This document shows positions 15,815 through 59,902 of a stretch of DNA of 64,000 bases, in pieces. The position numbers and the translations under genes were made by a program. Source of the DNA: Somniosus microcephalus (lineage: Eukaryota); NCBI GenBank assembly GCA_052327205.1, contig CM126208.1, positions 207,576,001-207,640,000 on the forward strand. Direction: 5' to 3'. Each line of letters opens with the position of its first letter. Position 1 is the stretch's first letter. The notes under the pieces are model-generated. The model worked only from the letters and a program-made list of their open reading frames with translations, did no database searches and had not been told where the DNA came from.

Positions 15815-18800
15815 AGACATAGGAACAGGAGTAGGCCATTCAGTCCCTCGAGCCTGTTCCGCCATTCAATGAGATCATGGCTGATCTGCGACCTAACTCC
15901 ATATACCTGCTGACATAAATCGTGCCATTCATGTAGAAATGACTTATGAAATATACTGGGCGGCCTGTTGATGGCGCTGTCCAGGGAGAGTATAAATACT
16001 CTGGCACAGGCCCAGCTTGCTCAGGGACATTTTGTAAACAGGAACTAGTGAAGGATAACTAGACTTCCATGTTGTGAAACAGTCGATTAAAGCCTTGTTT
16101 AATACTCTGACCAAGTGCCTAGTAGTTTTCTTACATCAATTTAATCGACTGTTTGCTGCTCCAAACTCTGAGTGGTTTTGGGAACAGATGGCTACGACTC
16201 AAACGGTAGAAGGGAACCAGAGGTAGTAATCAATCCATCATGGAGAAACTACTCTGACCCGCCCGTCTTGACATGGTCCCGAATTCACCTACAGCGACTA
16301 AGGTATGGAAACACTGGTATTGTACCTTCAGCAACTTCCTCAGGGCGTGTGGTGAGAATGTTCCCGTTAAGTTAGAGATACTTGCCAATTATGTTATCCC
16401 CTCATGTGTTTGACTATATCGAAGACTGTGTAGACAATGACTCCGCTATCCAAATACTACAGCAACTATATGTTAAGGCCCCAAACACAATTTTTGCTCG
16501 GCATCTACTGGCCACAACTCGATAACAACTTGACGAATTCCTTCAAAAGCTTTGCAGGCTCAGCAAGGATTGTAATCTCAAAGCTGTCTCAGCTGAGCAG
16601 TACCAGGAGGAGTTAATTCGTGATTCCTTTATTAACGGAATTGCGTCTCCTTTCATATGCCAGCGTCTGTTGGAGAATAAAACCCTCAAGTTACAAGCTG
16701 CCTATGACCAGGCATGTTCTTTGGACTCAGCAAAAAAAAAATGCAGATGCCTATCTTTTACCGCGTGCACGGACTGCTGCTATCACTTTTGGTGACTCCT
16801 CCAATGGGCCTCGGGCGGAAGCCCTCACTGATGACTACTCTATCCTAGCCGATGACGACCCTACCCTAGAAGCCCTCACTGATGACGACCCTGCCCTAGC
16901 GGCATCTTGGCAATCTGGAAGGAAGTGTTTCTTCTGTGGAGGTGCATTCCACTATAGGAAATTTTGTCCTGCTCGTAACGCAACCTGCAGTCATTGCAGT
17001 AAGAAAGGTCACTTTTCTAAGGTATGCCAGCCAAGAGCCCCTGTTAGTTTTGCAGCTGCTACCTATAAAACTGCTCCTCCCCCAAGAGCCACTACTAAGG
17101 TTACAGCTGCTATCTATAAAACTGCTCCTCCCCCAAGAGCCACTACTAAGGTTACAACTGTCAAGGGTAAAACTACTCCCATCACAGCTGTTTTTCCCCA
17201 AAGCGTGTCCCATGCAGCCACGAAAGTTTCGGTAAATGGACACATTTTGAGTGCACTAATCGACTCATGCAGCTCTGACAGCTTCATCAGTGAGCAGGCT
17301 GTCAGTAAGTTAAAACTGCATATTTACCCCTCGGACAGGGAAATTGCAATGGCTCTGACAACACTGACCACCAACTTTTCCGGCTTTTGTCTTGTCGACC
17401 TTATTCTCAATGGCCGCACTTATTCCTCCACCTGGCTCGGGGTGCTCAAAAACCTATGCAGTGATGTGCTCCTGGGACAGGATTTCCAGAAACAACACAA
17501 AAGATTCACTTTTGAGTTTGGAGGGTCAAAACCGGAGCTTACTATTTCCAAAGTACCGTTTTGTGCACTTCGACGGCTTCGCTCAATGAGCCCTCCTTGT
17601 TTGCCAATCTTTCCCCTCGATGTAAGCTAAGTCACTAAATCACAATGTTTCAGCCAAGATGATCTATCCTTTATCGAGGCAGAGATCTCTCACCTTCTAG
17701 CTGACGGTATCATTGAGCCATGTTCATCTTCCTGGCGGGCTCAAGTCGTTGTTAAAAATCCTCTAAAGCAACACAAGAAACGTCTTTGCATCGATTACTC
17801 GCAAACTATTAACCAGTATACCGACCTGGATGCCTACCCACTACCACGTATCGATGACATGGTCAATAACCTTGCCAACTACAAGGTATTTTCAACTTTT
17901 GATTTAAAGAGCGCATACCATCAAGTACTGTTAAAGGACTCTGACAAAAAGTATGTGGCCTTTGAGGCCAATGGTCGGCTTTACCAGTTTTGTCGCCTTC
18001 CATTTGGGGTCACCAATGGGGTGGCCGTCTTCCAACGGGCCTAGTCAAACAGGAGAACTTAACGGACACTTTTCCATATCTGGATAATATCACCATTGCT
18101 GGTCATGACCAGAAGGAACATGATGTCAACCTCCAGAAATTTCTTGACGTTCTCCGTCGTCGCAACTTAACCTTAAATGAGCCCAAATCTGTGAAATCAG
18201 TACCATCAGTCAACATCCTTGGCTACTGGGTGGGCAATGGTGTCATCAAACTGGATCCGGAGCGACTTTGTCCGCTTCAGGAGCTCCCTCCTCCTATGAA
18301 TCTCTGCTCTCTTCGTCGGGCCCTTGGCATGTTTGCCTATTATGCGAAGTGGATACCCCACTTTTCCAACAAGATCCAGCCCATGCTTCACGCGAAGTCA
18401 TTTCCGTTGAAGGCAATGGCTATTTCAGCTTTCGACCTCCTCAAGCAACAACTGGAAAAAGCCACGCATTGTTCCATCAATGAAAATCTCCCTTTCGTGC
18501 TCGAGTGCGATGCATCGGATGTGGCGATCTCGGCTACCTTGAATCAAGGTGGTCGACCCGTAGCATTTCTGTCCAGAACTTTGCAGGGTAGCGAGCTCCA
18601 TTATCCTCCTGTCGAGAAGGAGACTACGGCTATCATTGAAGCAGTACATAAATGGAGTCATTGTCTCGCTCGTCGCCATTTCACGCTCCGTGGCCTTTAT
18701 GCTGGATAACTGGAAACGCACTAAGATCAAGAATAACAAAGTACAGCTGTGGAGGATGGAATTGGCCGCCTTTGGCTACACCATACATTATCGACCCGGC

Positions 18801-47311: not shown

Positions 47312-50300
47312 AAGAACATAAGAAATCGGAGCAGGAGTAGGCCAATCGGCCCCTCGAGCCTGCTCCGCCATTCAATAAGATCATGGCTGATCTGATCCTA
47401 ACCGCCAATCCACTATCACAGAACCATCTCCTGAATCTAACAGAATTAGACACACGAAATAGGAGCAGGATCAGGCTACACGGCCCCTGGGCCCGCTCCG
47501 CTACCCACAGGGCCATGACCGATCCGAACCTAGACTCATGTCCACATTCCTGCCCGCTCCCCGTAACCCTTAATTCTCTTTACTTCTAGGAAACTGTCTA
47601 TTTCTGTTTTAAATTTATGTAATGATGTAGCTTCTACAGCTTTTTGGGGCAGCATATTCCATGGACCTACCACCTTCTGAGTGAAGTAGTTCCTCCTCAT
47701 CTCAGTTTTGAAAGAGCAGCCCCTTATTCTAAGACTATGCCCCCTAGTTCTAGTTTCACCCATCATCGGGAACATCTTCCCCGCATCCACCTGATCCAAC
47801 CCCTTCACAATCTTATATATTTCAATAAGATCGCCTCTCATTCTTCTGAACTCCAATGAGTAGAGTCCCAATCTACTCAACCTCTCCTCATATGTCCATC
47901 CCCTCATCCCCAGGATTAACCGAGTGAACCTTCTTTGTACTGACTCGAGAGCAAGTATGTCCTTTCTTAAGTATGGACACCAAAACTGTACGCAGTATTC
48001 CAGGTGCAGTCTCACCAATACCTTGTACAACTGAAGCAATACCTCCCTATTTTTATATTCTATCCCCCTAGCAATGAAAGCCAACATTCCATTGGCCTTC
48101 CTAATCACTTGCTGCACCTGCATACTAACCTTTTGGGTTTCGTGCACCAGGACCCCCAGATCCCTTTGTACTTCAGTACTTTCCAGTTTCTTGCCATTAA
48201 GATAATAACTTGCTCTATGATTTTTCCTGCCAAAGTGCATAACCTCACACTTTCCAGTATTGTATTCCATCTGCCAAATCTCTGCCCACTTACTTAGCCT
48301 GTCGATGTCCCCTTGCAGGTTTTTTATGTCCTCCTCACTCACTACTTTCCCTCCTATCTTAGTATCATCTGCAAACTTTGATATGTTACACTCGGTCCCC
48401 TCCTCCAAATCGTTAATATAGATTGTAAAGAGTTGGGGACCCAGCACTGACCCCTGCGGAACACCACTAGTTACTGATTGCCAGTCTGAGAATGAACCAT
48501 TTATCCCAACTCTCTGCCTTCTGTTAGATAGCCAATCCTCTATCCATGCCAGAATATTACCCCCAATCCCGTGATTTTTTATCTTAAGCAATAATCTTTT
48601 GTGTGGCACCTTGTCAAATGCCTTTTGGAAGTCTAAATACACTACGTCCACTGGTTGCCCTTTATCCACCCTATACGTTACTTCCTCAAAGAACCCCAGC
48701 AAATTTGTCAAACATGACTTCCCCTTCATAAAACCATGCTGACTTTGTCCGATTAAATTATGATTATCCAAATGTCCTGTTACTGTCTCCTTAATAATGG
48801 ACTCCAAAATTTTGCCTACCACAGATGTTTTCCAGCCTTCCGTCTACTGCCCTTTTTAAATAAGGGTGTTACATTAGCAGTTTTCCAGTCTGCCGGGACC
48901 TTTGCCGAGTCCAGGGAGTTTTGGAAAATTATTACCAATGCATCCACAATCCCTACCGCCACTTCCCTCAAGACCCTAGGATGTAAGCCATCAGGTCCAG
49001 GTGATTTATCCGCCTTGAGTCCCATTATTTTACCGAGTACCACTTCCTTAGTGATTTTGATCGTGTTTAGCTCCTCCCCCCCTTTAGCCCCCTGTTTGTC
49101 CAGTGTTGGGATATTCTTAGTGTCTTCTACTGTAAAGACTGATGTAAAATATTCATTCAGTGTTTTTGCCATCTCCATATTTCCCACCATTAATTTCCCG
49201 GTCTCATCCTCTAAGGGACCAACATTTACTTTAGCCACCCTTTTTCTTTTTATATAACTATAAAAACTCTTACTATCTGTTTTTATATTTTTTGCTCATT
49301 TACTTTCATAATCTATCTTCCCTTTCTTAATCAATCTTTTTGTTATTTTTTGCTGTCTTTTAAAGTTTTCCCAATCCTCTATCCTCCCACTAGATTTGGC
49401 TACCTTATATGCCCTTGTTTTTAGTCGAATACTATCCTTAATTTCTTTACTTAGCCACGGATGGCTGTCTTTTCTTTTACACCCTTTTCAGTGGAATATT
49501 TTTTTTTTGGAAGTTGTAAAATAACTCCTTAAATGTACACCACTGATCATGTATCGTCTTACCCTTTAATCTATTTTCCCAATCCACTCTACTCAATTCC
49601 GCTCTCATACCTTCATAGTCTCCTTTATTCAAGCTTAGCACGCTTGTTTGAGATCCAACCTTCTCACCCTCTAATTGAATATGGAATTCAACCATGTTAT
49701 GGTCACTCATTCCAAGGGGATCCTTTACTAGGACATTTTTAATTAATCCTGTCTCGTTACACAGGACCAGATCTAAGGTTGCTTACCCCCTGGTCGGTTC
49801 AGTTAAATACTGCTCAAGAAACCCATCCCTAATACACTCAATGAACTCATCCTCAAGGCAGCCCTGCCCAATTTGATTTGTCCAATTAATATGATAGTTA
49901 AAATCCCCCATAATTATAGATGTTCCCTTATTACAAGCCTCAACTATTTCCTGATTGATACTCCGTCCAACAGAGTTGCCACTGTTCGGAGGCCTATAGA
50001 CTACGCCCACTAGTGTTTTTTTCCCCTTATTATTCCTTACCTCCACCCAAACTGTTTCATTATCCTGATCTTTTGACCCAATATCATTTCTCTGTATTAC
50101 AGTGATTCCTTCCTTTATTAACATAGCCACCCCACCTCCCCTTCCTTCCTGCCTGTCCTTCCTGATCGTTAAATAACCTGGTATGTTTAATTCCCAGGCA
50201 TTGTCACCCTGCAGCCATGTTTCTGTAATGGCCACAAGATCATACCCATATGTAGTTATTTGTGCCATTAACTCGTCTATTTTGTTACGAATGCTACGTG

Positions 50301-50520
50301 CATTCAGATAGAGAACTTTCAAATATGTTTTGTGACACTTAGTTCCTGCTTTTGCCCTTTTTATTACTTTACCTTTTACCCCATACCTTCTGCCCCTTCC
50401 TGACACGCTCTGGTTTTTAATTTCCCCACTGCTACCTAAGTCTATGACCTTCTTTGTTGTCATTTTTATTATTTGCTCTCTAGGAACCTCCCCCCCACTA
50501 GTTAGTTTAAAGCCCTCTCT
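47312..50520 (-). mobile_element. CR1 LINE with nearly the whole ORF2 (several frameshifts) and the ORF1 terminus, antisense to OXR1
   Basis: ORFs 49783-50463 (endonuclease), 49477-49710, 48816-49238, 47536-48822 (RT, FADD); ORF1 end GLN* at ~50501-50520; tail aagaacataagaa. Confidence 0.95.
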
Positions 50521-51915
50521 ACATAGTGGAAACCCTCAGGACTGGCTCCTTATGTTAAACCATGACAAATAAGTTAACAGTCCATTTGTCTAGCTTTATG
50601 TGTTTTTATTAAATGGGTGAAGTTTGTGCAGGTTTTGATGAAGCAGAATGGATTCTTTTTTTCTACTTTTCTCACCCAATCTCCATACACCAGGCCAAGT
50701 GTAGTTCAGGCTGGCTGGAGAATGAGGTGCCCTCTACCCTCTCCCAGCAATGTTAGAAGAGTATATACTGCATCAATGGGAATTTTCAGTTTCTACACCA
50801 TCCAAACTAAATTACCAAGTTATGAGTAGCTTTATTACATGAGCTGTGCCCTGTGGGAAGTCGATTGAAAGTGGTTAAAATCAATACTGCAGTTGTTAAG
50901 GTGCTGTACTTCCAACCTCGAGATCCCGAGTTCAAATCCCACCATGGTAAATTGTGAAAATGAATTCAGTTGATCTGGTAATTTGATGGCTGGTACCAGA
51001 AACATAACCATGAGAGCTGCCAGATTTTCATCAATTCCCAACTTGTTTAGTTTACTTCAGGGAAGGAAACCTGCCATCCATGCCGAGTCCGTTCAACATT
51101 TAACTCTATTCGGAAACTACAGGGCTATTTTCTTTTATAATGCACATCGGGGGCGGGGGTGAAGCAAATGAACCACCCACCCAATAGCCAGATGTCAGAA
51201 CCATGTTCAAGGGAGACTGAAAGTCCGTGGCACCAACCCAGAAGTCAAAACTTAAAGGGAGGGCACCGAAGGATTGCCAGCAAGCCAGAAGATATTTGTG
51301 GGGCCAAGATGAGCTTCTCCTGGCCACATACAATTAATGTTGAAAACTTACTTGCAATCTTTCCATAGTGACCACTTCGTTGTTTAGGCCACTTTTCGTC
51401 CAGTACTAGCGGGCAGAGCGTGCACAGCACATGTCCAGTGGTACCAAAAATTGCATTGGGGTCCTACAACTGGTGTATGACTCCAATTTAATTATTGTAA
51501 TATGGCACCTGCCTTTTTCAGGCAAGAGCACTAGCTGCTGATTTCAAGTCCCACTGAAATTAAGTTTGGTGGTGGTATTTATTTTAAAAAATTGGTTTGC
51601 CTATCACTCCGATTTTCATATGCTATTCAGCCTCTCGAGCCTGCTACACCATTCAGTTAGATCATGACAGCTCTGTATCTTAACTCCATCTACCCGCCTT
51701 GGTTCCATATCCCTTTAAACCCTTGCCTAACAAAACCTCCCAATCTGAGGCCAGTTATACAGCCTTACTGTTATCCCAGCAACGATCAGATAACCTAGCA
51801 CAGACCAGTGGATGAAAGCCTGGGACTTTCCTGGTCTGTAAGGCTCAGCCACTTGTTGGATAAACTCACTGAGGCATTGGGAGAGCCATTCTAGCCACTT
51901 ACAGTTAAACATAAT

Positions 51916-54810: not shown

Positions 54811-55548
54811 GCACATTTGAGCTGAAGGACAAGGGGAAAATATCTAACTAACTGGTCATGTCATGAGATGACCTGCCGTTGTCAAACTCTGTCATGTTAT
54901 GGTCACTGTTTGTGAGATGCTCCCTTGTGCCCTTACTAACTCTGACTTGAAACTAGCCAGTTTATATGTGGTTCATTAAAGTCTTCTGGAGGCTGTAGCG
55001 CACCTCTAGTATTAGCCTAGATCTTTTTGTATTCGAGATGTATAGCTTGATATACCTATCAATTCGTCCAATGAAAAGCGACGAGTTAAGAAAGTAACTA
55101 TAGGTTTTTATTGACTAAATAACAGAGCCCACCCTCGTGGGTGATCGGATCCAAGAAGGAGGAATACCAGCCAGTCGACCACCTTTATACCTGGGCAGGT
55201 AGGTGGAGCCATGGGCGGAGTCGGCAGTGGTCAGCCCAGGTATAGCAGCGTGACAAGAGGCGACCTCGTACAGTGATACAACAATGTGAACAGTGATAAC
55301 TATAGGGAAACGATCTAACAGTGATAACTATAGTGCAACGATAGTGAACGGTAAAAGTGGTTTACCACATTCACCCCTTGTTTAGATTTGAGTCCGGCGG
55401 GGTGAAGTGTACTACCAGTTCTGGTATGTCAGTCTGTCCGGAGGCCTCATAAGCCTGTCTGATCGTCGCAGCGGCGGTGTTGCGTTCTCCGGTGTTAATG
55501 CTGGCGTCTGCGAGGTAGGCGAAGGCTCTTGGGGTTCCGGCGTACCGT

Positions 55549-56510
55549 CTACCTGGGCTGGAATTGGGGGGGGGGGTGGGGGGGGGGTAGCGGTGGTGTC
55601 TCCGGAGTGCCCGAGGGTGCGAGGTCTCGTAAGGAGACTGTGTCCTCCCGCCCGTCTGGGTATGCCACGTAGGCGTACTGGGGGTTGGCGTGCAGGAGGT
55701 TCACCCTCTCGACCAGGGGGTCCGTTTTATGGGCCCTCACGTGCTTTCGCAGCAAGACAGGCCCCGGAGAGGTCAGCCAGGTTGGTAGCGTGGTTCCCGT
55801 AGTCGACTTCCTGGGGAAAACAAACATTCGTTCATGGGGGGTGGCGTTAATGGCAGTGCAAAGTAGTGACCGGGTGGAATGCAGCGCCGCCGGGAGGACC
55901 TCCTGCCAGCGAGAGGTTGGGAGGCCCTTAGACTTTAAGGCTAAGAGGACGGCCTTCCATACCGTCGCGTTCTCTCTTTCCACCTGGCCGTTCCCTCGGG
56001 GGTTGTAGCTGGTGGTCCTGCTAGTGGCGATGCCTCTCGCTAGTAGGAACTGACGGAGTTCCTCGCTCATGAAGGAGGCGCCCCGGTCACTATGTATATA
56101 GTTTGGGAACCCGAACAAGGCAAAGAGGTCGTTCAGGCATTTAACGACCGTGGTGCTGGTCATGTCTGGGCAGGGGAAGGCAAAGGGGAAACGGGAGTAC
56201 TCATCAACAATGTTGAGGAAGTACACATTACGGTCAGAGGACGGGAGGGGCCCCTTAAAATCGATGCTCAAGCGCTCGAAGGGGCGGGTGGCCTTGATCA
56301 GGCTTGCTCTGTCCGGCCTAAAGAAGTGCGGTTTGCACTCGGCACAGGTCTGGCAGTTCCTGGTCATGGTCCTGACCTCCTCGATGGAGTAGGTCAGGTT
56401 GCGGGCCTTAATGAAGTGGTAAAGCCTGGTGACCCCGGGGTGGCAGAGGTCATTGTGGAGGGTCTGAAGTCTATCAATTTGCGCGCTGGCGCATGTAATT
56501 CGCGATAGAG
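55549..56510 (-). CDS. Gypsy C integrase, disconnected from the polyprotein by a deletion/frameshift
   Basis: LHNDLCHPG..CQTC, IDFKGP, VDEYSRF, HSDRG, GNGQVEREN, GPVLL. Confidence 0.9.
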
Positions 56511-56512
56511 CG

Positions 56513-59317
56513 TTAGGTGGATAGCTCGATTCTCCACCTCAAGATCTTGTCGTTCTTGATTTTACCCCTCAGCTTGTTATTAAACATAAAAGCGACCGAC
56601 CGCTGGTCGGTGAGGAGGGTAAATCGCTTGCCTGCGAGGTAATGCCTCCAGCGGCGTACCGCCTCCACAATCGCCTGGGCCTCCTTCTCGACCGAAGAGT
56701 GTCGGATCTCAGGGCCCTGTAGGGTCCTTGAGAAGAAGGCCACCGGTCTCCCCTCCTGGTTGAGGGTAGCGGCTAGGGCGAAGTCGGATGCATCGCTCTC
56801 CACTTGGAAGGGGATGGACTCATCCACTGCGTGCATAGTGGCCTTAGCAATGTCTCCCCTGATGAGGGAGAAGGCCGTGCGCGCTTCTTCCGTAAGGGGG
56901 AAGGAGGTGGACTTCATGAGGGGTCTGGCTTTGTCCGCATAATTCGGCACCCATTGGGCATAGTAGGCGAAGAGCCCCAGGGTTCTCTTCAGCGCCTTTG
57001 GACAGTGGGGAAGGGGTAGCTCCATGAGGGGACGCATTCTTTCGGGATCGGGGCCGATGATTCCGTTCTCTACTACGCAGCCGAGGATGGCAAGGCGCGA
57101 GGTGTTAAACACACATTTCTCCTTATTGTAGGTGAGGTTCAGCCGTTGGGCCGTACGGAGGAATCTTTCCAGATTAGCGTCATGGTCTTGCCGGTCGCGG
57201 CCGCAGATGGTGACGTTATCTAGATAGGGGAACGTGGCTTGCAGCCCGTTCTGGTCAACCATCCGGTCCATCTCCCTTTGGAAGACCGAAACCCCGTTGG
57301 TGACGCCGAAGGGGACCCTAAGGAAGTGGTAGAGGCGGCCATTCGCCTCGAAGGCGGTATACTGGCGGTCCTCGGGGCGGATAGGGAGTTGGTGGTAGGC
57401 CGACTTAAGGTCGATGGTAGAGAATACCCGGTATTGAGCAATCTGATTGACCATATCAGATATGCGGGGAAGGGGGTATGCGTCCAGCTGGGTGTACCGG
57501 TTTATGGTTTGGCTGTAGTCAATGACCAGGCGGTTTTTATTGCCGGTCTTAACAACTACAACCTGGGCACGCCAGGGGCTGCTGCTCCCCTCGATGATGC
57601 CCTCCTTCAGGAGACGCTGCACCTCAGAGCTAATGAAAGCTCTGTCCCCGGAGCTGTACCGCCTGCTCTTGGTAGCGACGGGTTTGCAGTCGGGGGTGAG
57701 GTTAGCGAACAGGGAAGGTGGCGGGACCTTGAGGGTGGATAGGCCGCAGGTGTTACGCGGTGGGCGATTTAAAGGCTGCTGGTTGTCGACTGTGAGCGGG
57801 GGGAGGGGTCCACCGTATGCTAGAGTGACGCTTTGGAGGTGGGATTGAAAATCCAGCCCTAGTAGGACGGCAGCGCATAGCTGGGGCAGGACGAGGAGTT
57901 TAAAGTTTTTATACTCCGTGCCCTTAACCGACAGGGTCACAACACAGTAGCCGCTGATGTCTGTGGCGTGGGACCTCGATGCCATCGAGATCTGGTTGCG
58001 CGTTGGCTGGACAGTGAGGGAGTAGTGGCTCACCGTGTCTGGATGTATGAAGCTCTCCGTGCTTCCGCTGTCGAACAGGCAGGTCGTGGCGTGGCCGTCT
58101 ACTTTGATGTCCATCATTGACTTGGACAGCTGATGCGGGCGAGCTTGGTCTAGTGTGACGGAGGCTAGTGTGTGGCTGAGCGGGTCGCTGTAGTCTGTAG
58201 GTGAAGCGGTCGTCAGGTCTGGAGGTAAGGTGGCGGTCGAGCGTGGTGGGTAAAATGGAGGCGCCCACGAGGTGGGGCAAAATGGTGGAGAAGATGGCTG
58301 CCCCCACAACCCACATGAGGCACTGCTGGCGTCGGTTGCCTGGATCAAAGATGGCCGCCCCCATTGCTCATCTGTGGCCTTGATAGAAGATGGCCGCCCC
58401 CACAGTTCGCATGAGGCACTGCTGGCCTCTGCTGCTCTCCCTCTGCAGGCCTTCGCGAAGTGGCCTTTCTTCAGGCAGCTGGAGCACGTCGCGCTTTTGG
58501 CTGGGCAGCGCGACCTCGGGTGTTTCGCCTGCCCACAGAAGAAGCAGCCGGCGGCCCGGTCGCGGGGGTCCGAAGTCGCAGCCGGTACCGGGGGTGGCGG
58601 TCCCGATCGGGTCCGGGACGCCGACGCTGAGGTAGGTCCCGGGGGCGGCGCTACGAGGGGTATTGCGGTCGGGGTCGGGCCCGAGTCCCAGAGTCGCGAA
58701 CTGTACCTGGAATACACCTCGAGGTCCCGCTGGGTCACTTCTAGGGAGTAGGCCAAGGCTGCAGCTGTGTTCAGGTCGAGGTCCTTTGATTCCAGCAGTC
58801 TCTGCCGTGAGTAGTCGGACCGAAGGCCTTTCACGAAGGCATCACGGATGTTATCTTCAGTGTTTTCTGCAGCCGATACTGCTTTAAAGTCACAGTCCCT
58901 GCCGAGTGTTCGTAGCGCCCGTAAAAATTCAGCTACAGACTCTCCTGGCTGTTGCGGGCGGGATCTTAGGAGGTGTCTGGCATACATGGAATTTACCGGG
59001 CTCCGGTACTGCTGTTTCAGTAGGTTGATAGCGGCCTCGTAAGTAGTAATGTCCTGGATGAGTGCGTATACTTTAGGGCTCGCTTGGGCGGTCAGAACTC
59101 TCAGTTTGGATCTCTGAGGGACGCCGGATTCTTCCAGGTAGGATTCGAAGCAGCACAGCCAGTGTTTGAAGTCGAGGGCTGCGTTTGTTGCTTGTGGGTT
59201 TAGATCCAGGTACGGTGGTTTGAGGGCTCGCAACCAAGCCGGCTGTTGTAGCTGGGCGTCTGGCTGGTCGTTTGGCTGCTCCGTTGACTGGTTGTTTGGC
59301 TGCTCAAGTGACGACAT
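56513..59317 (-). CDS. Gypsy C gag-pol polyprotein (gag, two CCHC knuckles, protease, RT, RNase H), ending prematurely
   Basis: 934-aa ORF: CFFCGQAKH, CSSCLKKGH, LFDSGS, YLDN, ESDASD, EKEAQAIV, LTDQ. Confidence 0.93.
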   Translation of the reverse strand: MSSLEQPNNQSTEQPNDQPDAQLQQPAWLRALKPPYLDLNPQATNAALDFKHWLCCFESYLEESGVPQRSKLRVLTAQASPKVYALIQDITTYEAAINLLKQQYRSPVNSMYARHLLRSRPQQPGESVAEFLRALRTLGRDCDFKAVSAAENTEDNIRDAFVKGLRSDYSRQRLLESKDLDLNTAAALAYSLEVTQRDLEVYSRYSSRLWDSGPTPTAIPLVAPPPGPTSASASRTRSGPPPPVPAATSDPRDRAAGCFFCGQAKHPRSRCPAKSATCSSCLKKGHFAKACRGRAAEASSASCELWGRPSSIKATDEQWGRPSLIQATDASSASCGLWGQPSSPPFCPTSWAPPFYPPRSTATLPPDLTTASPTDYSDPLSHTLASVTLDQARPHQLSKSMMDIKVDGHATTCLFDSGSTESFIHPDTVSHYSLTVQPTRNQISMASRSHATDISGYCVVTLSVKGTEYKNFKLLVLPQLCAAVLLGLDFQSHLQSVTLAYGGPLPPLTVDNQQPLNRPPRNTCGLSTLKVPPPSLFANLTPDCKPVATKSRRYSSGDRAFISSEVQRLLKEGIIEGSSSPWRAQVVVVKTGNKNRLVIDYSQTINRYTQLDAYPLPRISDMVNQIAQYRVFSTIDLKSAYHQLPIRPEDRQYTAFEANGRLYHFLRVPFGVTNGVSVFQREMDRMVDQNGLQATFPYLDNVTICGRDRQDHDANLERFLRTAQRLNLTYNKEKCVFNTSRLAILGCVVENGIIGPDPERMRPLMELPLPHCPKALKRTLGLFAYYAQWVPNYADKARPLMKSTSFPLTEEARTAFSLIRGDIAKATMHAVDESIPFQVESDASDFALAATLNQEGRPVAFFSRTLQGPEIRHSSVEKEAQAIVEAVRRWRHYLAGKRFTLLTDQRSVAFMFNNKLRGKIKNDKILRWRIELST

Positions 59318-59902
59318 TTTAAAATTTAGTCAATAAAATTGATATACCTATCAATTCGTCCAATGAAAAGCGACGAGTTAAGAAAGTAACTATAGGTTTT
59401 TATTGATTAAATAACAGAGCCCACCCTCGTGGGTGATCGGATCCAAGAAGGAGGAATACCAGCCAGTCGACCACCTTTATACCTGGGCAGGTAGGTGGAG
59501 CCATGGGCGGAGTCGGCAGTGGTCAGCCCAGGTATAGCAGCGTGACAAGAGGCGACCTCGTACAGTGATACAACAATGTGAACAGTGATAACTATAGGGA
59601 AACGATCTAACAGTGATAACTATAGTGTAACGATAGTGAACGGTAAAAGTGGTTTACCACATAGCTCATTTTTGTAGCTTGCCTCCTCCCACAAGATCAA
59701 CGACTTCTTCATTTATCATCCAGATGCCCCTGACAAATAGGGCTACAGCACCTTCTTTCCTGCTCAGTCTAGACACTCTATACTGTTGAATGTTAAACCC
59801 ATTTCCACCATATAGACTAGCCACAATTATGCTAGTTCCATGTCATTATAGTGCCCTACTGCAACCAAAGCCTCCAGTTCTGGCATCAGTGAAAGTGTAA
59901 TC

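Follow-up and report, generated by a model that had tools for sequence, protein, structure and literature searches.

The window analysed here, a stretch of 64,000 nucleotides, contains element C, a Ty3/Gypsy LTR retrotransposon on the minus strand, together with elements A and B, and the structure described below sits at the inner end of the 5' LTR of C (Table 1). Element C was recognized as Ty3/Gypsy by its TG...CA LTRs, its TSD and the order PR-RT-RNase H-IN; among solved structures, Ty3 is the closest to its RT. The two LTRs, each of 322 bp, differ at 2 positions, and the reading frame of this copy is interrupted between RNase H and integrase. The nearest named proteins are those of rays and sharks, with up to 84% identity, and relatives were found in corals, a nematode and many metagenomes, while none was found in the viral contigs that we scanned. 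Across the 6.4-Gb genome, an RT motif of the element group has 35,423 matches. In a quick tree that served only for grouping lineages, and in which a long outlier that is likely a different RT (L189) and the RT of a neighbouring element (L193) were ignored, the shark elements, interspersed with metagenome sequences, form three separate groups (A/C, B and L069), a pattern suggestive of several old lineages or of transfers. Bacterial MAG contigs (L301-L308) also carry these retrotransposons, for which host contamination is the probable explanation. Elsewhere in the window, a long CT-rich simple-repeat array (5590-9300) abuts the 5' LTR of element A, and LINE-type endonuclease/RT frames lie at 761-3457 and 47536-50535.

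Table 1. Features of element C and the corresponding junctions of elements A and B, in window coordinates.
Feature	Position	Strand	Basis or remark
5' LTR of C, TG...CA, 322 bp	59340..59661	-	comparison with 3' LTR
3' LTR of C; arm a perfect complement of the primer site	55048..55369	-	sequence
TATA box (LTR 181-186)	59476..59481	-	sequence
Putative transcription start and primer 5' end (TATA+30/31)	59450..59451	-	pile-up of fold-back tail ends, not RNA-mapped
LTR arm of P1, putative primer 3' end; 1 mismatch in the 5' LTR of C	59398..59412	-	sequence, alignment
AATAAA inside the LTR arm of C	59404-59399	-	sequence
Putative cut, arm/RCC boundary (P1/P2 junction)	59397..59398	-	fixed register and Tf1 analogy
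P2 5' strand, ACCUAU; absent from the first-pass annotation	59392..59397	-	folding
GTTA/TAAC hairpin of the first-pass annotation; kept by only part of the shark A/C group	59377..59390	-	81% of cells paired, few two-sided changes
Middle stem of the first-pass annotation; non-conserved	59356..59376	-	47% of cells paired, A and C registers differ
P2 3' strand, AUAGGU; overlaps and competes with the LTR-end hairpin	59346..59351	-	folding
LTR-end hairpin of the first-pass annotation; possible in most shark A/C junctions, chance level over lineages	59339..59354	-	
1-nt spacer between LTR-end CA and primer site	59339..59339	-	sequence
Primer-site tract, complement of the LTR arm, without TGG tRNA site	59324..59338	-	sequence
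gag, in whose sequence two CCHC knuckles are visible; protease, RT, RNase H	56513..59317	-	
Integrase frame of C, no chromodomain match	55549..56538	-	
Polypurine tract of C	55370..55381	-	sequence
5-bp TSD TAGCT	59662..59666, second copy 55043-55047	+	sequence
Element A junction	5370..5453	-	arm 5453-5440, P2 start 5439-5436, spacer 5384, primer site 5383-5370
Element B junction, 15-bp perfect P1	16077..16154	+	arm 16077-16091, primer site 16140-16154

The junction is closed by a helix, P1, in which an arm inside the LTR pairs with a tract that starts 1 nt after the CA of the LTR end. P1 measures 11-19 bp and its two sides change in step across families. The tract contains no TGG tRNA site, and its variation between families excludes one fixed tRNA as the primer. 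In the genome, the arm/tract pattern has 29,916 matches compared to 67 for a reversed control. The first-pass annotation had described a 15-bp helix in C; the helix stands, although it is not perfect, since one A-C mismatch interrupts it in the 5' LTR and only the 3' LTR arm is fully complementary. We aligned 35 distinct shark A/C-type junctions, picked from 68 distinct junctions for their alignable loops. P1 is paired in 97% of the cells of this alignment, and its RNAalifold consensus contains 13 pairs, 7 of them with two-sided changes; in columns 4-16, 454 of 455 cells are Watson-Crick and none is G-U. P1 of at least 11 bp was also present in 16 of 17 shark 5' ends chosen by RT motif alone (the first 20 motif matches, less 3 without a 5' end), and P1 of at least 10 bp in 37 of 44 non-shark 5' ends compared to 1 of 71 internal control windows. 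Among the seven non-shark ends without a scored P1, four have an imperfect P1 by eye and three have less than 135 nt upstream.

For comparisons beyond sharks we used 24 lineages, hand-picked from the quick tree and the sequences, with the shark A/C group counted as one and the registers of L156, L161 and L162 set by hand. In 20 of these lineages the last four letters of the arm are TAAA or AAAA. A search with the pattern AATAAAB...CAATTTATT gave mostly chance matches (1,384 compared to 836 in the control) and was rejected; we excluded L198 and L199, and also a repeat that it brought up (L181-L183, L200), which lacks P1. That unrelated repeat carries a tiny hairpin after AATAAA in two forms, GGC-TAT-GCC and GTC-TAT-GAC. 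Some individual junctions depart from the common layout: L116 has a tandem duplication of the LTR end and primer site, and in A-type junctions such as L035, L036 and L039 a predicted extra helix, in which the gag AUG pairs to a CAU upstream of it, prolongs P1, an extension not seen in the C copies L001-L030.

Inside P1, the feature that recurs is a short stem, P2, in which RCC(U) pairs with (A)GGY. RCC lies immediately 3' of the arm in 20 of the 24 lineages, usually with such a partner, and P2 is predicted to stack on P1. P2 of at least 4 bp was found in 18 lineages, compared to 12.2 ± 2.0 in shuffled loops whose first 5 nt were held fixed (p=0.004). Counting only stems without a bulge, the numbers are 16 lineages and 9.8 ± 2.0, and the summed pairing probability of 15.2 (10.2 ± 1.5 in shuffles) was reached by 0 of 50 shuffles. 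The partners match in detail: all four ACC lineages have GGT opposite, two RCCA lineages have TGGT, and RCCT lineages mostly have AGGY. In sharks P2 is a long-range stem that closes the whole loop and leaves a bulge of 5-7 nt with the LTR end. Its strength varies. P2 has a probability of 0.21 in window C, it is shorter than 4 bp in 6 of the 24 lineages, and RCC is absent in 4. The loop of element B begins with GCCT and its P2 is bulged; the first P2 pair is an A-C mismatch in an 858-copy C subfamily, and in other C subfamilies the fifth P2 pair is broken and the LTR-end hairpin is kept. In L146, L161 and L303, P1 is kept and RCC is absent, with a TGG/CCA-type stem instead in L303. In L069 and L082, P2 has a competitor in a 6-bp stem that changes on both sides (TAGATT/AATCTA versus TAGCTT/AAGCTA), hinting at two alternative folds.

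We consider it fairly likely that P2 is functional. The alternative that best withstands the data, though still an unlikely one, is that all inner stems, P2 among them, are chance pairings and that only P1 and the motif UAAA/RCC matter. Short stems are indeed frequent in shuffles (a null of 12 of 24), RNAalifold returns no inner pair, and several lineages lack P2. Chance pairing, however, fits poorly with the enrichment at the level of lineages when the first 5 nt are fixed, with an A that always faces U at the first P2 pair in four lineages, and with the tight local hairpin that P2 forms in many non-shark lineages.

The first-pass annotation had instead placed a conserved cloverleaf, three stems enclosed by P1, in this region of C and A. 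All 12 stem halves that it listed for the two elements are at the coordinates given, and the gag ATG lies close behind the LTR as described (22 nt in C, 23 nt in A). The letters of the pairs were correct, but they had been read on the plus strand and both elements are transcribed from the minus strand. On the RNA strand, the cloverleaf is the MFE structure of C (-16.1 kcal/mol), tied with a rival fold only 0.2 kcal/mol away (-15.9 kcal/mol) in which both middle hairpins remain and ACCUAU:AUAGGU takes the place of the LTR-end hairpin; yet the cloverleaf represents 2.7% of the ensemble, and the centroid of C has no LTR-end hairpin. In A the best fold is a long rod at -20.7 kcal/mol, compared to -14.7 kcal/mol for the cloverleaf. 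The enclosed part taken alone folds only modestly better than its shuffles, with z -1.77 and 9 of 200 shuffles equally good in C, and z -2.23 and 8 of 200 in A.

Over the 35 shark junctions, the RNAalifold check for covariation kept P1 and none of the three inner stems. The middle stem, which had been said to keep pairing, is paired in 47% of cells, a lower bound given its different register in A and C. The GTTA/TAAC hairpin is paired in 81% of cells with few two-sided changes, and the LTR-end hairpin in 87%, in the latter case by invariance (12 unpaired cells and zero compensated changes in its first five pairs). Mean pairing probabilities are 0.96 for P1, 0.50 for P2, 0.17 for the LTR-end hairpin and 0.16 for GTTA/TAAC. 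The cloverleaf is not conserved because the LTR-end hairpin is at chance level over the 24 lineages (7 compared to 6.6 expected, p=0.51), only 5 of the 24 have three top-level stems inside P1 in the MFE, and the enclosed loops range from 24 to 79 nt, a spread that also removes the description of the junction as tRNA-sized. Covariation, folding energies and lineage counts together rule out the cloverleaf as a conserved fold, and the region gave no ARAGORN or Rfam match that would mark a tRNA mimic or a known RNA family.

It is improbable that the shark A/C elements work through the cloverleaf, or through its LTR-end hairpin at the least, as a counterpart of the U5-IR stem-loop that perhaps switches with P2 before and after the cut. 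The MFE of C agrees with this proposal, as do the TTG...CAA pairs, possible in 33 of the 35 shark junctions, the few two-sided changes in GTTA/TAAC, and an enrichment of the LTR-end hairpin among 33 representatives at 85% identity (22 compared to 11.1 in shuffles), a less strict set that includes many related shark families. The Tf1 structure, too, includes a duplex beside the primer site (PMC10085805). Against it, the first five pairs of the LTR-end hairpin show zero compensated changes and its 3' side is the integrase end; P2 is the more probable stem on average and in 25 of the 35 junctions individually; the hairpin does not rise above chance over the 24 lineages; and the cloverleaf is unfavourable by 6 kcal/mol in A. 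Among the shark A/C elements, this hairpin may represent an alternative fold.

Two kinds of trace in the genome bear on what the helix does. The first concerns the primer site. Among 7,701 C-type junctions, 12 have U-G hybrids and 410 have C-A mismatches, and nearly all C-A mismatches among the matches listed fall in the 858-copy subfamily. For 100 listed copies of this subfamily, the arm has C in all 100, and the primer site has A in 49 and G in 51. When 10 copies with the A-type site were compared to 10 with the G-type site, a comparison that reached the 3' LTR arm in only 1 of the 20, no other alignment column split them and distances within and between the two sets were equal (0.0906). Unrepaired heteroduplex between the primer copy and the genomic site is established for retroviral plus-strand transfer, and a primer site segregating 1:1 beside a fixed arm is the outcome expected from it. 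From this pattern we infer that the arm is copied into the primer site during replication.

The second trace is left by fold-back copies. Plus-strand synthesis that continues past the paired part of the primer would place inverted LTR sequence from upstream of the arm after the LTR end. We found 307 such junctions for C (0 in the control), 30 for A-type elements and 41 for a third family. Tail lengths were measured in 51 of the 70 C-type loci examined and in 14 of the 30 A-type fold-backs, the remaining 19 and 16 being left out for want of their own arm, TATA or LTR start. C-type tails end at TATA+28 to +32 in 13 cases, at +33 to +62 in 28, at -2 to +27 in 1 and further out in 9; the corresponding A-type counts are 5, 7, 0 and 2. 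Among the tails that end between TATA 0 and +60, those stopping short of +28 number just 1 of 42 for C-type and 0 of 12 for A-type elements (under a uniform null, p 2e-10 and 6e-4). Polymerase II starts about 30 nt after a TATA box. The wall in tail ends 30 nt past TATA coincides with this start; in the simplest reading, the first ~53 nt of the transcript make up the primer. The third family, which lacks a canonical TATA, shows no sharp wall: its tails with an LTR start measure 24-91 nt, 3 of them 86-91 nt, and 5 more reach the LTR start. No pile-up of U5 pieces at the predicted cut was seen in reversed fold-backs. In four loci (L275, L290, L231, L232) the inverted tail ends at the LTR start, giving short near-palindromic inserts with two U3-type ends. 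In RNA reads from two runs of a related species, gag reads are mostly sense and LTR reads run in both directions; no transcription start, cut or poly(A) site emerged from them.

These tails, read from genomic copies, make it probable that the primer comes from the 5' end of the RNA. Self-priming with a copy of the 3' LTR arm, supplied by the RNA 3' end or by a second packaged RNA, is a similarly improbable alternative to that of a working cloverleaf. It would accommodate the 4 of 51 C-type tails that extend through the full LTR and into the polypurine tract (L225, L267, L285, L286), which a strand jump onto the 3' LTR would explain as well as a primer of 3' origin, and the 1:1 segregation of the primer site is compatible with both sources. 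As a check on the source, tail-versus-LTR mismatches yielded only one that was shared, at a CpG, which is uninformative as to the primer's origin. But a 3'-derived primer has no end at TATA+30, where the tails accumulate, and does not account for the near absence of tails that stop short of +28. The suggestion of the first-pass annotation that the region presents the primer and a cleavage site is supported by primer-site segregation and the fold-back data, with the position of the cut itself inferred. It is very improbable that P1 mainly hides the poly(A) signal of the 5' LTR or controls gag translation, with priming by other means: AATAAA does lie inside the arm in both C and A, and the MFE covers the gag AUG in A-type junctions, but a hexamer (AATAAA/ATTAAA) occurs in only 14 of the 24 arms, a purely structural helix would tolerate the G-U pairs that are nearly absent, and such roles predict neither the segregation nor the tails.

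Self-priming is, in our judgement, very probable for these elements. It is likely that the fold-back helix, whose loop this stretch forms, lets the Ty3/Gypsy element prime its own reverse transcription, with P2, predicted to stack at the likely cut site, and not the cloverleaf, as the recurrent inner feature. In the mechanism that we propose, the capped 5' leader would fold back and pair to the primer site through its nt ~39-53, and P2 would stack gap-free on P1. By analogy to Tf1, RNase H would cut at the P1/P2 junction (UAAA/RCCU), a position suggested by the fixed register together with Tf1. The cut would free a 3' end opposite the spacer base, from which RT, again as in Tf1, would copy U5; the RNA between the cut and the poly(A) site would serve strand transfer. 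The primer would be ~53 nt long, with only the last ~14 nt base-paired. For the nuclease, we lean slightly toward the element's own RNase H, whose domain is present.

Priming of this kind has precedents. In the comparison literature consulted here, self-priming is credited to Tf1/sushi chromoviruses and proven for Tf1 (PMC3601003, PMC7175516, PMC6934838, PMC4600332, PMC5445492, PMC6238403, PMC11042837, PMC10085805). Tf1/Tf2, Tj1, Tosmo and the Tf1/sushi chromoviruses are described as having no tRNA site, a primer site that complements their own LTR, and a primer from the RNA 5' end (PMC7175516, PMC4600332, PMC10085805), and C-type elements likewise combine the absence of a tRNA site with a primer site complementary to their own LTR. 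As a further resemblance, a single-stranded cDNA tail in Tf1 receives a copy of the primer site (PMC11042837). The differences lie in the primer and the junction. Tf1 RNase H is reported to cleave between bases 11 and 12 (PMC7175516). The Tf1 primer is the first 11 nt, wholly paired, whereas here it would be ~53 nt, about five times longer, with the last ~14 nt paired. The paired segment here adjoins or overlaps the poly(A) signal and would not be the very 5' end of the RNA, the predicted start lying ~39 nt upstream of the arm; the recurrent stem P2 begins on the primer side of the junction. A three-duplex 'pretzel' is also required in Tf1, its outer duplexes drawing on sequence that flanks the primer site (PMC10085805). 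Neither duplex is enriched in our lineages: the upstream type was found in 7 of 24 compared to 6.6, and the downstream type in 7 of 21 compared to 5.3 (p=0.25). No match to the Pfam chromodomain was obtained in 7 proteins at E 0.1. With no chromodomain match, a longer predicted primer and unenriched outer duplexes, these elements are not Tf1/sushi members on the features tested, though Tf1-like in their working.

Two other known structures invite comparison. The U5-IR stem-loop of Rous sarcoma virus and Tf1 is located just upstream of the primer site (PMC5445492, PMC10085805). The LTR-end hairpin of C is in the equivalent place; it differs in being unconserved across lineages and in competing with P2 in the shark A/C group. 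In the fungal GalEa Copia elements, a Conserved Hairpin Site takes the place of the tRNA site; both of its arms are reported downstream of the LTR, and no LTR complement was found there (PMC5445492). The shark elements also have a hairpin instead of a tRNA site, with one arm inside the LTR.

As to lineage, the shark elements resemble the Mag lineage (A, B and C clades; Jule, Gulliver, SURL) in their short LTRs, 5-bp duplication, two CCHC knuckles, single gag-pol frame and wide metazoan range. These traits, with the lack of a chromodomain, are marks of that lineage. Two CCHC knuckles, short LTRs and no chromodomain were found here, and on these traits membership in the Mag lineage is plausible. 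Our literature search found no report of self-priming in the Mag lineage and none of a P1/P2-like structure outside Tf1/sushi; this search fell short of most subscription papers and supplements and does not establish absence from print. We regard as evenly poised the broader proposition that a metazoan-wide, non-chromovirus Gypsy clade (more than 30,000 copies here) has evolved its own self-priming, using a capped ~53-nt 5' fragment, a cut at a stack of two helices (UAAA/RCCU) and priming by the last ~14 nt, with a genomic fossil record, made up of fold-back walls and 1:1 primer-site segregation, that would allow primer ends to be mapped with no need of an experiment.

The cloverleaf itself is of no consequence, since it is not conserved. 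In the corrected picture, the mechanism is of a known, Tf1-like kind, with a junction and a primer that are precise enough to be tested. P1 and P2 together make a minimal, testable substrate for RNA-RNA cleavage by a retroelement RNase H, and the fold-back wall offers a reusable method for mapping primer ends from genome sequence. If our reading is correct, self-priming would extend to a second clade, found in animals and very abundant, whose primer is long and whose RNA junction differs. Priming without tRNA would then be common and probably of more than one origin, and self-priming elements would escape control by tRNA fragments.
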